Shown: piece by piece, positions 24,327 through 40,690 of the stretch
Layout of the letters: each line of letters starts with the position of its first letter
Position numbering within the stretch: position 1 is the first letter of the stretch
Assembly: GCF_009931435.1 (NCBI RefSeq)
Contig: NZ_CP043414.1
Origin: Escherichia coli
GTDB taxonomy: Bacteria; Pseudomonadota; Gammaproteobacteria; Enterobacterales; Enterobacteriaceae
DNA length: 64,000 nucleotides
Strand: one strand, 5' to 3'
The notes under the pieces: model-generated
Databases searched by the model: none
What the model saw: the letters and a program-made list of their open reading frames with translations, nothing else
Told to the model about the DNA's origin: nothing
Translations under genes and position numbers: made by a program

Positions 24327-24423
24327 ATCGTCACTTTTACTCTAAGAAAATTGTTGCGCATTATAGCTAATAAGCGCGTCATGTCATAAAGTTGAGGGCT
24401 TATTTTCATTTGAGGACCGCACC

Positions 24424-26245: not shown

Positions 26246-27256
26246 TTAGATATGGGTAACGATTTCTTTAATCAGCGGCGGTCCTTTAAAAATAAAACCA
26301 GAATAAATTTGCACCAGTGAGGCCCCCGCAGCAATCTTTTCACGCGCAGCGATAACCGAGTCAATGCCGCCAACACCGATGATCGGTAAGCGACCGTTTA
26401 ATTCCTGAGACAAACGGCGAATAATTTCGGTGCTTTTTAACTGTAGCGGACGACCACTTAAGCCACCGGTTTGATCACAATTTTTCATTCCCTGAACCAG
26501 AGAACGATCGAGCGTGGTATTGGTTGCAATAACGCCATCAATATTATGGCGAACTAAACTATCGGCAACCTGGATCAATTCTTCTTCAGAAAGATCCGGC
26601 GCGATCTTCACGGCGATCGGCACATATTTATGGTGCATCGCTTGCAAATCATTTTGCTTATTTTTAATCGCGGTTAAGAGATCATCCAGCGCTTCGCCAT
26701 ATTGCAGTGTGCGTAATCCTGGGGTATTCGGCGATGAAATATTGATGGCGATATATCCCGCATAGGCATAGATTTTTTCCATACAAATCAGATAGTCATC
26801 TTTACCCTGCTCCACCGGCGTATCTTTATTTTTGCCGATATTAATCCCCAGAACACCATCGTAATGAGCTTTTTTTACGTTCTCAACGAGGTTATCAACG
26901 CCGAGATTATTAAAGCCCATACGGTTGATCAAACCTTCGGCATCTACCAGACGAAAGAGACGCGGCTTGTCATTACCTGGCTGTGGACGTGGCGTGACGG
27001 TACCGATCTCGATAGATCCAAACCCCATCGCGCCTAACGCGTCAATGCACTCCCCGTCTTTATCAAGACCGGCTGCCAGACCAAGCGGATTTTTAAACGT
27101 CAGGCCCATGCAGTTAACAGGTTTCGCAGGCACTTTCTGCCGCACCAGTGCTTCAAACGGTGTTCCTGTAATACGGCGTAATTGCTGAAAAGTAAACTCA
27201 TGAGCGCGCTCTGGATCGAGCTGGAAAAGGGCTTTACGAACGAAGGGGTAGTACAT
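26246..27256 (-). CDS. pyrD: dihydroorotate dehydrogenase (quinone)
   Basis: 336 aa from [21 protein letters not shown]...; the track ORF has a 9-aa extension. Confidence 0.95.
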
Positions 27257-27492
27257 GAACTCTCCTGGATTCCCGGTGTGCAAACCGGGGGCGTATTATG
27301 TGCGAGTTCGGACCAAAAGGGAATTGACCTACGGCAATAAATAGCAAACGTTTTCTTATTGCGCTTTTTTTATGCTTTTTTTGGCTTTGCTTCGTCAGAT
27401 AAATCATTTCGACTCGCGGACGCCCTCTGTCAGACTGACCAAATTGTTATCAATTTTAACAAAACAAGAACAATTGGTTATAAGGAGAGAGT

Positions 27493-28068
27493 ATGCGTGT
27501 CATCACCCTGGCGGGGAGTCCTCGCTTTCCTTCTCGCTCCAGCTCCTTGCTGGAATATGCGCGGGAAAAACTGAATGGCCTGGATGTAGAGGTTTATCAC
27601 TGGAATCTGCAAAACTTCGCCCCGGAAGATCTGCTTTATGCTCGTTTCGATAGTCCGGCACTCAAGACCTTCACCGAACAGCTGCAACAGGCTGATGGAC
27701 TGATAGTCGCTACACCTGTGTATAAAGCCGCCTATTCCGGTGCGCTGAAAACCCTGCTCGACCTGCTGCCAGAGCGCGCTTTGCAAGGCAAAGTGGTGCT
27801 GCCGCTGGCGACGGGCGGCACGGTGGCTCACCTTTTGGCGGTCGATTACGCCCTTAAACCGGTTTTAAGCGCACTGAAAGCCCAGGAGATCCTGCACGGC
27901 GTGTATGCCGATGACTCACAGGTGATTGATTACCACCACAAACCCCAATTCACGCCAAATCTGCAAACCCGTCTTGATACCGCGCTAGAAACTTTCTGGC
28001 AGGCACTTCACCGCCGTGATGTTCAGGTTCCTGACCTTCTGTCTCTGCGAGGTAATGCCCATGCGTAA
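27493..28068 (+). CDS. ssuE: NADPH-dependent FMN reductase
   Basis: 191-aa ORF with an aaggag RBS; first gene of ssuEADCB. Confidence 0.93.
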   Translation: MRVITLAGSPRFPSRSSSLLEYAREKLNGLDVEVYHWNLQNFAPEDLLYARFDSPALKTFTEQLQQADGLIVATPVYKAAYSGALKTLLDLLPERALQGKVVLPLATGGTVAHLLAVDYALKPVLSALKAQEILHGVYADDSQVIDYHHKPQFTPNLQTRLDTALETFWQALHRRDVQVPDLLSLRGNAHA

Positions 28069-29020
28069 GATCATTAAACTGGCGCTGGCGGGATTGCTTA
28101 GCGTCTCTACACTCGCGATTGCCGCAGAGTCGTCTCCAGATGCGTTACGTATTGGCTATCAGAAAGGCAGTATTGGTATGGTGCTGGCAAAAAGCCACCA
28201 ATTATTGGAAAAACGCTATCCGCAAACAAAAATCTCGTGGGTGGAGTTCCCCGCTGGCCCACAGATGCTGGAGGCGTTAAACGTTGGCAGTATCGATCTC
28301 GGCAGTACCGGGGATATTCCACCAATCTTTGCCCAGGCTGCCGGGGCTGATTTGGTGTACGTGGGCGTCGAGCCGCCGAAGCCCAAAGCCGAAGTGATTC
28401 TGGTGGCAGATAACAGTCCGATCAAAACCGTAGCCGATCTTAAAGGTCACAAAGTTGCCTTTCAGAAAGGTTCCAGCTCGCACAATCTTTTACTACGCGC
28501 ACTACGCCAGGCCGGGCTTAAATTCACGGATATCCAGCCCACTTACCTGACGCCTGCCGATGCCCGCGCCGCGTTCCAGCAAGGTAACGTCGACGCATGG
28601 GCTATCTGGGATCCCTACTACTCCGCTGCGTTATTACAGGGCGGCGTGCGGGTGCTGAAAGACGGCACCGATCTTAATCAAACCGGCTCGTTTTACCTGG
28701 CAGCTCGTCCCTATGCAGAAAAAAACGGCGCATTTATTCAGGGTGTACTGGCAACCTTTAGTGAGGCCGATGCGTTAACCCGCAGCCAGCGCGAGCAAAG
28801 CATCGCTTTACTGGCAAAAACGATGGGCTTACCAACGCCGGTGATTGCCTCTTATTTAGATCATCGCCCCCCTACCACCATCAAACCGGTTAACGCCGAG
28901 GTTGCCGCCTTACAGCAGCAAACGGCAGATCTGTTTTATGAAAACCGTCTGGTACCGAAAAAAGTCGATATCCGCCAGCGCATCTGGCAGCCCACTCAAC
29001 TGGAAGGAAAACAATTATGA
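28061..29020 (+). CDS. ssuA: aliphatic sulfonate ABC transporter periplasmic binding protein
   Basis: 319 aa from [15 protein letters not shown]... with a signal peptide; 8-nt overlap with ssuE. Confidence 0.92.
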
Positions 29021-30162
29021 GTCTGTATATGTTCTGGTTTTTACCGACCCACGGAGACGGACATTACCTGGGAACGGAAGAAGGTTCACGCCCGGTTGAT
29101 CACGGTTATCTGCAACAAATTGCGCAAGCGGCGGATCGTCTGGGCTATACCGGTGTGCTAATTCCCACAGGGCGCTCGTGTGAAGATGCGTGGCTGGTGG
29201 CAGCGTCGATGATCCCTGTGACGCAACGGTTGAAGTTTCTTGTTGCCCTGCGCCCCAGCGTAACCTCACCTACCGTTGCTGCCCGCCAGGCCGCCACGCT
29301 GGATCGTCTCTCTAACGGACGCGCGTTGTTTAATCTGGTCACAGGCAGCGATCCGCAAGAGCTGGCAGGCGACGGCGTATTCCTCGATCATTGCGAGCGT
29401 TACGAAGCCTCGTCTGAATTTACACAGGTCTGGCGGCGCTTATTGCAGGGCGAAACCGTCGATTTTAACGGTAAACATATACATGTACGCGGAGCAAAAC
29501 TGCTCTTCCCGCCAATTCAACAGCCCTATCCTCCGCTTTACTTTGGCGGCTCGTCAGACGTCGCCCAGGATCTGGCCGCTGAACAGGTTGATCTCTACCT
29601 CACCTGGGGCGAACCACCGGAGCTGGTAAAAGAGAAGATCGCGCAAGTGCGGGCGAAAGCTGCCGCGCATGGACGCAAAATTCGTTTCGGTATTCGTCTG
29701 CATGTGATTGTTCGTGAAACTAACGACGAAGCGTGGCAGGCCGCCGAGCGGTTAATCTCGCATCTTGATGATGAGACCATCGCCAAAGCACAAGCCGCGT
29801 TTGCCCGCACCGATTCCGTGGGGCAACAGCGAATGGCGGCGCTACATAACGGCAAGCGCGACAATCTGGAAATCAGCCCCAATTTATGGGCGGGCGTTGG
29901 CTTAGTGCGCGGCGGTGCCGGGACGGCGTTGGTGGGCGATGGTCCGACGGTCGCCGCGCGAATCAACGAATACGCTGCGCTTGGCATCGACAGCTTTGTG
30001 CTTTCTGGTTATCCGCATCTGGAAGAAGCGTATCGGGTCGGCGAGTTGTTGTTCCCACATCTGGATATTGCCATTCCGGAAATTCCCCAGCCACAACCGC
30101 TGAATCCGCAAGGCGAAGCGGTGGCGAATGATTTTATCCCCCGTAACGTCGCGCAAAGCTAA
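29017..30162 (+). CDS. ssuD: FMNH2-dependent alkanesulfonate monooxygenase
   Basis: 381-aa ORF; 4-nt overlap with ssuA. Confidence 0.94.
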
Positions 30163-30172
30163 GGAAGAAATA

Positions 30173-30964
30173 ATGGCAACGCCAGTGAAGAAGTGGTTAT
30201 TGCGCGTTGCCCCCTGGTTTTTACCGGTGGGCATCGTGGCGGTGTGGCAACTGGCCTCCTCGGTTGGCTGGCTGTCGACGCGTATTTTGCCCTCTCCGGA
30301 AGGGGTGGTAATGGCGTTCTGGTCGCTCTCAGCCAGCGGCGAATTGTGGCAGCATCTGGCGATCAGCTCCTGGCGGGCGTTGATTGGTTTTTCAATTGGC
30401 GGATCGCTGGGGTTGATTCTGGGACTGATAAGCGGACTGTCGCGCTGGGGAGAAAGGCTGCTGGATACCTCAATTCAGATGTTGCGCAACGTGCCGCATC
30501 TGGCGCTGATCCCGCTGGTGATTTTGTGGTTTGGTATTGATGAATCCGCAAAAATCTTTCTGGTGGCGCTCGGCACGCTATTCCCCATTTATATCAACAC
30601 CTGGCACGGCATCCGTAATATCGATCGCGGTCTGGTGGAAATGGCGCGTAGCTATGGATTATCCGGCATACCGCTGTTTATCCATGTGATCCTGCCTGGT
30701 GCCCTGCCCTCAATTATGGTCGGCGTACGTTTTGCGTTGGGCCTGATGTGGCTGACGCTGATTGTTGCCGAAACCATTTCTGCCAATTCCGGCATTGGTT
30801 ATCTGGCGATGAATGCGCGGGAGTTTTTGCAAACGGATGTGGTGGTAGTCGCCATTATTCTCTACGCCCTGCTCGGCAAACTTGCTGACGTCAGCGCGCA
30901 GCTGTTAGAGCACCTCTGGCTGCGCTGGAATCCGGCTTATCATTTGAAGGAGGCCACGGTATGA
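30173..30964 (+). CDS. ssuC: aliphatic sulfonate ABC transporter permease
   Basis: 263 aa from [15 protein letters not shown]..., with an aaggaag RBS. Confidence 0.92.
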
Positions 30965-31728
30965 ATACTGCTCGTCTGAACCAGGGCACACCCTTGTTAC
31001 TCAATGCAGTAAGCAAACATTACGCAGAAAATATCGTTCTGAACCAACTGGATTTACATATTCCGGCAGGTCAGTTTGTGGCGGTGGTGGGCCGCAGCGG
31101 TGGTGGCAAAAGTACCCTGCTGCGCCTGCTGGCAGGTCTGGAAACGCCAACCGCAGGCGATGTGTTAGCGGGTACCACGCCGCTAGCTGAGATTCAGGAA
31201 GACACGCGAATGATGTTTCAGGATGCGCGTCTGCTACCGTGGAAATCGGTGATTGATAACGTTGGGCTGGGCCTTAAAGGCCAGTGGCGCGATGCCGCGC
31301 GTCGGGCGCTGGCTGCGGTAGGGCTGGAGAATCGCGCGCGGGAATGGCCTGCCGCACTTTCTGGCGGGCAGAAACAGCGTGTGGCGCTGGCAAGAGCGTT
31401 GATTCATCGACCGGGTTTATTATTGCTTGATGAACCGCTCGGGGCGCTGGACGCCCTGACTCGGCTCGAGATGCAGGATTTGATTGTGTCACTTTGGCAG
31501 GAGCACGGCTTTACCGTACTGTTGGTGACGCATGATGTGAGCGAAGCGGTAGCAATGGCGGACCGGGTGTTGTTAATTGAAGAGGGAAAAATTGGTCTGG
31601 ATTTGACGGTGGATATCCCCCGTCCGCGCCGGTTAGGGTCGGTGAGATTAGCAGAGCTGGAAGCGGAAGTGTTGCAACGGGTGATGCAGCGTGGGCACTC
31701 TGAACAACCGATTCGGCGTCATGGTTAA
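30961..31728 (+). CDS. ssuB: aliphatic sulfonate ABC transporter ATPase
   Basis: 255-aa ORF with Walker [10 protein letters not shown] and an ABC signature; 4-nt overlap with ssuC. Confidence 0.94.
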
Positions 31729-31729
31729 T

Positions 31730-31925
31730 ATGCCGGATGTGGCGCACAAAAACAGCGGTTTCAACGGATTGTAGGCCTGATAAGACGCGTCAAGCGTCGC
31801 ATCAGGCATTTGGGCACGGCTGCCGGATGCGGCGTGAACGCCTTATCCAGCCTACAAAACCAGCATTTTCAACGGACTTGTAGGCCTGATAAGACGCGTC
31901 AAGCGTCGCATCCGGCATTTGGGCT
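31730..31925. repeat. REP/BIME cluster: three REP palindromes in alternating orientation, with an about 55-bp imperfect direct repeat
   Basis: taggcctgataagacgcgtcaagcgtcgcatcaggca (31771-31807), gccggatgcggcgtgaacgccttatccagcctac (31821-31854), and a second gcctgataagacgcgtcaagcgtcgcatccggc copy (31879-31914). Confidence 0.85.
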
Positions 31926-31933
31926 CAAAAGTA

Positions 31934-40663: not shown

Positions 40664-40690
40664 AAGCCCGCTGAAAAGCGGGCTTTTTTA
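40664..40690. terminator. terminator between convergent aspC and gloC
   Basis: Hairpin aagcccgc-tgaaaa-gcgggctt followed by ttttta. Confidence 0.75.

Follow-up and report, generated by a model that had tools for sequence, protein, structure and literature searches.

The pyrD–ssuE locus of Escherichia coli raises the question of how a chromosome comes to be without a fimbrial operon that K-12 carries at the same site: was the operon lost, or was it never there? The locus is considered here in a stretch of E. coli DNA of 64 kb, referred to in its entirety as the window. A preliminary description of this DNA noted that pyrD and ssuE adjoin each other at a distance of 236 bp, stated that the seven genes of elfADCG-ycbUVF lie between them in K-12, and proposed that the strain had either never acquired or cleanly lost these genes. 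The stated order matches the annotation of K-12 MG1655, which reads ssuE, elfA, elfD, elfC, elfG, ycbU, ycbV, ycbF, pyrD. In K-12 and O157:H7, the operon (ycbQRST...) belongs to the gamma-1 chaperone-usher type and is that of the ELF laminin-binding fimbriae; the chromosomal site and the flanking genes are the same as in the window.

The pyrD–ssuE junction

Within the window, pyrD and ssuE are divergent, immediate neighbors. The pyrD gene occupies positions 26246–27256 on the minus strand, reading from an ATG at 27256 to a stop at 26246, and encodes a quinone-dependent dihydroorotate dehydrogenase of 336 amino acids. The protein matches NCBIfam NF003644 along its full length (residues 1–336, 655.6 bits) and is 100% identical to K-12 PyrD at the amino acid level by tblastn. 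The ssuE gene (27493–28068, plus strand) encodes an NADPH-dependent FMN reductase of 191 amino acids, also with a full-length NCBIfam match (NF007859, residues 1–191, 357.9 bits). The rest of the aliphatic sulfonate operon follows on the plus strand at 28061–31728 in the order ssuA (28061–29020, NCBIfam NF008588), ssuD (29017–30162), ssuC (30173–30964) and ssuB (30961–31728). These four genes were located by tblastn comparison with K-12, and their products have 97–99% amino acid identity to the K-12 proteins. The spacer between the start codons of pyrD and ssuE spans 27257–27492 and measures exactly 236 bp, and the adjacency given in the preliminary description is therefore borne out by the coordinates together with the full-length family matches.

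That description had also regarded the spacer as free of open reading frames, which holds only loosely. Mechanical ORFs of 52–93 amino acids do cross it, all of them overlapping pyrD or ssuE, and none is supported. The impression of a clean junction was correct, as a repeat search of 27257–27492 returned neither IS-like ends nor flanking direct repeats, and the sole repeat was a 14-bp palindrome resembling a PurR box. The absence of the elf operon at the junction was likewise upheld: the seven K-12 Elf proteins gave nothing better than E = 0.2 when compared to the whole 64-kb window by tblastn, and the 7,087-bp K-12 segment that holds the operon gave no blastn match to the window at E ≤ 1.

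Elf and a small number of short intergenic indels are the only departures of the window from collinearity with K-12. K-12 has about 141 bp extra between rlmL and ycbX (window about 24342–24347) and about 160 bp extra between gloC and aspC (window about 40674–40684), and both extra segments are probably REP/BIME elements. The ssuB–pepN spacer (31705–31931) is 227 bp long in the window versus 64 bp in K-12, and includes a REP-derived naRNA4 element (RF02564, 82.2 bits) at 31774–31852 on the minus strand; an O169:H41 strain has IS1397 inserted in this same spacer. At the left end of the window, positions 1 to about 330 contain the 3' end of a tyrosine integrase gene, and only the 3' 60 nt of the tRNA-Ser gene serT are present at 474–533, with no intact tRNA detected by ARAGORN. 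The same sequence in E. coli E200086 forms the end of a lambdoid prophage (exonuclease, dicB, integrase) beside yccA. Since the integrase end and the partial serT match this prophage end, a prophage is integrated at serT in the window.

Comparison with the K-12 arrangement

An alignment to K-12, which the preliminary description had suggested as a means of locating the junction and any microhomology, gave edges at 27355 and 27425 with no microhomology. On the pyrD side, the blastn alignment starts inside pyrD and stops at 27355, where homology closes in GCAAACGTTTTC; in K-12, this sequence lies 10 bp from the ycbF stop codon. On the ssuE side, the alignment resumes at 27425, which precedes the ssuE ATG by 68 bp, and extends into ssuE with 161 of 168 positions identical. 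Between the two edges, the window has a core of 69 bp (27356–27424, unstranded, as bounded by blastn) where K-12 has 7,087 bp composed of the seven genes and their upstream region. Both have the pyrD leader, the PurR box and the 68 bp nearest to ssuE. The two arrangements are thus alternative alleles, and neither can be obtained by removing a piece from the other.

The GC content of the K-12 elf segment is 46.5% and that of its upstream spacer is 27%, as compared to 50.6–55.1% in the flanks. Low GC is the sole island-like trait of the segment. Only fimbrial genes are annotated within it, with no integrase or tRNA, and no terminal direct or inverted repeats were found at its boundaries. The only long repeats inside the segment are the paralogous chaperone genes elfD and ycbF.

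Retention of the core in a diverged form, together with a second PurR-like box, on the ssuE side of elf-positive alleles would imply a pure insertion with target duplication. Local alignments of the core to four such alleles (K-12, Escherichia sp. E1V33 and two Pseudocitrobacter loci) were not significant, the observed score being reached in 98, 734, 786 and 960 of 2000 shuffles, respectively. Nor did the diagonal at the same offset clearly exceed the others. An ungapped comparison with K-12 at the same offset gave 20 matches out of 41, a result reached by a fraction of 0.0008 of the shuffles in a comparison that was picked post hoc. Since the alignments and diagonal tests were not significant, the ssuE-side breakpoint is known only to about 30 bp, and a weak similarity to K-12, itself not significant, may continue past 27425.

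Distribution of the two alleles in E. coli

The frequency of each allele was obtained from a sample of 5,426 complete E. coli genomes. A pyrD–ssuE query produced one continuous match in 1,354 genomes, and the 236-bp spacer alone matched over its full length in 1,352 with up to 97.9% identity. With a sensitive blastn search, the 69-bp core was found as a single copy in each of these 1,352 genomes and in no other. The 7,087-bp K-12 segment was found in 4,073 genomes, from all of which the core is absent; the window, with its 236-bp spacer, contains this core. Since the two counts sum to 5,425, which is every genome having the locus, the two states partition the species, and the co-occurrence of elf and the empty core in one genome is essentially excluded.

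Among the elf-less genomes are those of Nissle 1917, UTI89 and O25b:H4-ST131, all of phylogroup B2; pig ETEC O139:H1 and one O169:H41 strain are elf-less too. The B2 strains have the same gene order, 236-bp spacer and 69-bp core as the window, and the spacers of the window and Nissle differ at only 5 of 236 positions. The window does not appear to come from a B2 strain. Its flanks have only approximately 97% identity to Nissle, and E. coli 2020CK-00188 is its nearest relative. Where the elf operon is present, it is diverse within the species: identity to K-12 is at least 99% in 1,656 genomes, 95–99% in 2,101 and 90–95% in 316. A few of the copies are interrupted by IS1.

These frequencies agree with the study of Wurpel et al. 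2013 (PMC3559732), in which Ycb was described as a chaperone-usher type that is clade-specific, being associated with phylogroups A, B1, D and E and missing from B2. Ycb was also mutually exclusive with the related Auf type, which is found in its place in B2 (PMC3559732). At 1,352 of 5,426 genomes, the elf-less state is common and has already been described (PMC3559732). The finding in the window is real but ordinary.

Conservation in other genera

A PyrD scan limited to one genome per species produced 80 loci with 10-kb flanks, onto which the K-12 proteins were mapped. Across the Enterobacteriaceae, ssuE adjoins pyrD in about 60 of these 80 species-representative loci. Direct adjacency is usual in Citrobacter, Enterobacter, Kosakonia, Klebsiella, Cedecea, Leclercia, Trabulsiella, Buttiauxella and others, and is also observed in E. 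whittamii, Escherichia sp. MOD1-EC7003 and the divergent 'E. coli' SCPM-O-B-8794. All elf-less Escherichia lineages examined have a spacer of exactly 236 bp; across Citrobacter, Enterobacter, Klebsiella, Kosakonia, Cedecea, Buttiauxella and E. whittamii, where the two genes are also divergent, the spacer length is about 236–260 bp. When 14 spacers from eight genera were aligned, conserved blocks were found along the whole interval, with the core motifs kept as far as Buttiauxella. The blocks held in common with the window are the ssuE-proximal TTAACATTGATAACAAT, GAAATGATTTAT, GCATAA, the PurR box and the pyrD leader. In contrast, the sequence between the blocks has diverged, and some genera have 12–13 extra bp beside the PurR box. 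Because other genera have both the ssuE–pyrD adjacency and the conserved core motifs, and because the GC content of elf is low, the empty site represents the family's ancestral arrangement and elf an insertion acquired horizontally.

Among the 80 loci, elf-like operons were found only in Escherichia sp. E1V33 (73–86% amino acid identity to K-12) and in Pseudocitrobacter (faecalis and vendiensis; 55–76%). In each case, the operon is situated at the same ssuE–pyrD site, whereas the window has none. As in K-12, the last chaperone gene of these operons ends about 10 bp from the PurR box, and this shared pyrD-side boundary suggests one old insertion that may have been spread by flanking homology.

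The elf-like operons at this site have seven genes (Pseudocitrobacter loci L022, 2128–10001; L025, 2267–10001; and L035, 14–520; E1V33 locus L003, 2186–10001), and the Pseudocitrobacter genomes that carry them are missing ssuADCB. More generally, the pepN–pyrD interval is variable across the Enterobacteriaceae (loci L006, L014 and L077; L047, 4940–10000; L048, 6440–10000). Most genera have the full ssuEADCB operon, and ssuE alone is found in Kluyvera and Phytobacter. In E. albertii and Salmonella enterica subsp. arizonae, pepN adjoins pyrD with neither ssu nor elf, and the interval is empty in Klebsiella indica as well. Other gene content is found in Superficieibacter (a sodium:solute symporter, a NagB-like gene, an amidohydrolase and a ROK regulator) and in Enterobacter sp. 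BIGb0383 (a LysR regulator, a nucleoside symporter and a phosphorylase).

Control elements of the spacer

Expression of pyrD is controlled by PurR, and both pyrC and pyrD are subject to translational control via leader hairpins. On the other side of the junction, the ssuEADCB promoter is dependent on Cbl and CysB. With respect to the elements that it contains, the spacer is best read as a compact bidirectional control region with a PyrD leader, a PurR-box-like palindrome and a putative ssuE promoter.

The PyrD leader, a cis-regulatory 5' leader, was identified immediately 5' of pyrD at 27251–27324 on the minus strand, where it covers model positions 1–74 of 74 of Rfam RF02373 with 97.9 bits, above the gathering score of 47. 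Its hairpin is located at 27270–27291, and a scan for terminator-like structures picked the same stem. The leader sequence, including the hairpin, is invariant in the 14 Enterobacteriaceae sequences of the spacer alignment. Further from pyrD, the PurR-box-like sequence TAGCAAACGTTTTCTT at 27341–27356 (unstranded) includes the palindrome that the repeat search placed at 27343–27356. It fits 12 of 16 positions of the palindromic 16-bp PurR operator consensus ACGCAAACGTTTGCGT and is a candidate operator. The AAACG.TTGC core of the palindrome is invariant in the same 14 sequences.

The remainder of the spacer faces ssuE. Within the 69-bp core, the alignment identified GAAATGATTTAT, which is nearly invariant across the eight genera, and GCATAA. 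The ssuE-proximal segment (27425–27492, plus strand), which blastn finds in common with K-12, includes the Shine-Dalgarno sequence, and its TTAACATTGATAACAAT block is conserved across genera. From its position, this segment may also hold the ssuE promoter. A simple scan of the spacer found no sigma-70 consensus promoter, a result that fits activator-dependent or non-consensus promoters and is uninformative. If the elements act as predicted, the pyrD half of the spacer would consist of the PurR-box-like palindrome, a promoter and the PyrD leader with its hairpin beside the ribosome-binding site, and the other half would drive ssuEADCB, a sulfur-starvation operon.

A divergent tract at ssuE and ssuA

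The nearest complete genome to the window is that of E. coli 2020CK-00188, with 99–100% identity in most 500-bp bins. A mismatch profile against this genome revealed a divergent tract at about 27300–29400 (ends approximate, unstranded) that takes in the spacer core, ssuE, ssuA and the 5' end of ssuD. Over the tract there are 5–20 mismatches per 100 bp, as opposed to 0–2 per 100 bp on either side, giving a difference of about 6% from an otherwise near-identical relative. The encoded proteins remain 97–99% identical to those of K-12. In none of 5,417 E. coli genomes does identity to this tract of approximately 2 kb exceed 94.9%, and the other Escherichia lineages compared are 88.8–92.1% identical to it. 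The tract appears to have been imported by recombination from an Escherichia lineage not yet sampled, and to be an old, functional allele. Neither 2020CK-00188 nor E200086, the close relatives of the window, carries elf.

A 5-kb neighbor-joining tree placed the window with Nissle, but this grouping is unreliable as the identity measure scored gap columns as differences and indels may explain it. With gap columns left out, comparisons in 500-bp bins find the window to be about equally distant (approximately 97% identity) from K-12 and Nissle. For these reasons, no phylogroup was assigned.

Origin of the elf-less spacer

The favored explanation is that the 236-bp interval is an intact ancestral divergent control region between pyrD and ssuEADCB and not the remnant of a deletion. 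In the ancestry of K-12, O157 and most strains from phylogroups A, B1, D and E, the 7.1-kb low-GC elfADCG-ycbUVF operon together with its AT-rich upstream region has taken the place of the central 69 bp. The strain that provided the window, having the uninterrupted allele, cannot produce ELF (YcbQ) fimbriae from this locus. Taken as a whole, from the anatomy of the spacer, which no observation contradicts, and its allele frequencies to the proposed roles of its elements and a lineage that most likely never carried elf, this explanation is given a probability of about 0.9. Two histories are compatible with it: either elf was never present in the lineage, or homologous recombination brought the ancestral allele back. 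Of these, primary absence is the more parsimonious, since the closest relatives are without the divergent tract yet are also elf-less.

The second of these histories may be stated as an allelic replacement, in which an elf-positive ancestor received an empty allele from another Escherichia by homologous recombination in the flanks, leaving no scar. The tract of approximately 2.1 kb starts inside the spacer and is about 6% removed from the nearest relative and from all 5,417 E. coli genomes. Moreover, the ssu–pepN region is unusually diverse (94–96% identity between K-12 and Nissle), and empty alleles are also found where the flanks resemble those of K-12, as in O169:H41 and pig ETEC, showing that alleles pass from one background to another. 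Nevertheless, replacement is considered unlikely as the route by which this strain came to be without elf: an import is not needed to account for an absence that the nearest relatives share without having the tract, and the empty site is the ancestral condition in the genus as well as in the family.

Simple deletion, by which the operon would have been excised from a K-12-like allele by illegitimate recombination, microhomology or an IS element, can be excluded with very little doubt because the spacer has 69 bp carried by no elf-positive E. coli genome (none of 4,073) and conserved in other genera. While the gene-free interval between pyrD and ssuE is the one observation that speaks for a deletion, an identical 236-bp spacer length is found in E. 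whittamii and other Escherichia lineages, and pyrD, ssuE and their control elements are all intact. A search for a deletion scar identified no microhomology, IS ends, or direct or inverted repeats in the spacer or at the boundaries of the K-12 island, and the junction is neither composed solely of operon-allele sequence nor marked by operon remnants. Thus, of the two histories offered in the preliminary description, clean loss by simple deletion of a K-12-like operon does not agree with the presence of the core, and what stays is an allele that never carried elf or was regained by recombination. It is just as improbable that the operon was relocated intact to another place in the same genome. 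There are no Elf homologs within the 64-kb window, the partition of the 5,425 genomes leaves essentially no room for both states, and only four elf matches were on plasmids. Least credible of all is an assembly artifact that collapsed the region, considering that 1,352 complete genomes and several other species have an identical junction.

A broader proposal extends the ancestral-spacer explanation across species. Elf and the empty spacer might constitute an old presence/absence polymorphism with one fixed boundary pair, spread among Escherichia lineages and to Pseudocitrobacter by homologous recombination via the pyrD and ssu flanks, and the tract in the window, being more than 5% divergent and without a match in any of 5,417 E. 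coli genomes, might be the footprint of an exchange with an unsampled Escherichia lineage. This proposal is speculative, and the odds are judged to be against it. If it were true, elf-positive and elf-less strains would differ in the control elements upstream of ssuEADCB, because the conserved GAAATGATTTAT is found only in the empty allele.

Implications

At this locus, K-12 represents the derived state, and the absence of a K-12 gene should not be taken to mean that it was lost. The 69-bp core may serve as a clean single-copy marker for the elf-less allele. Finally, the two alleles provide ssuEADCB with different upstream sequence, a difference that could affect how the operon is regulated under sulfur starvation.
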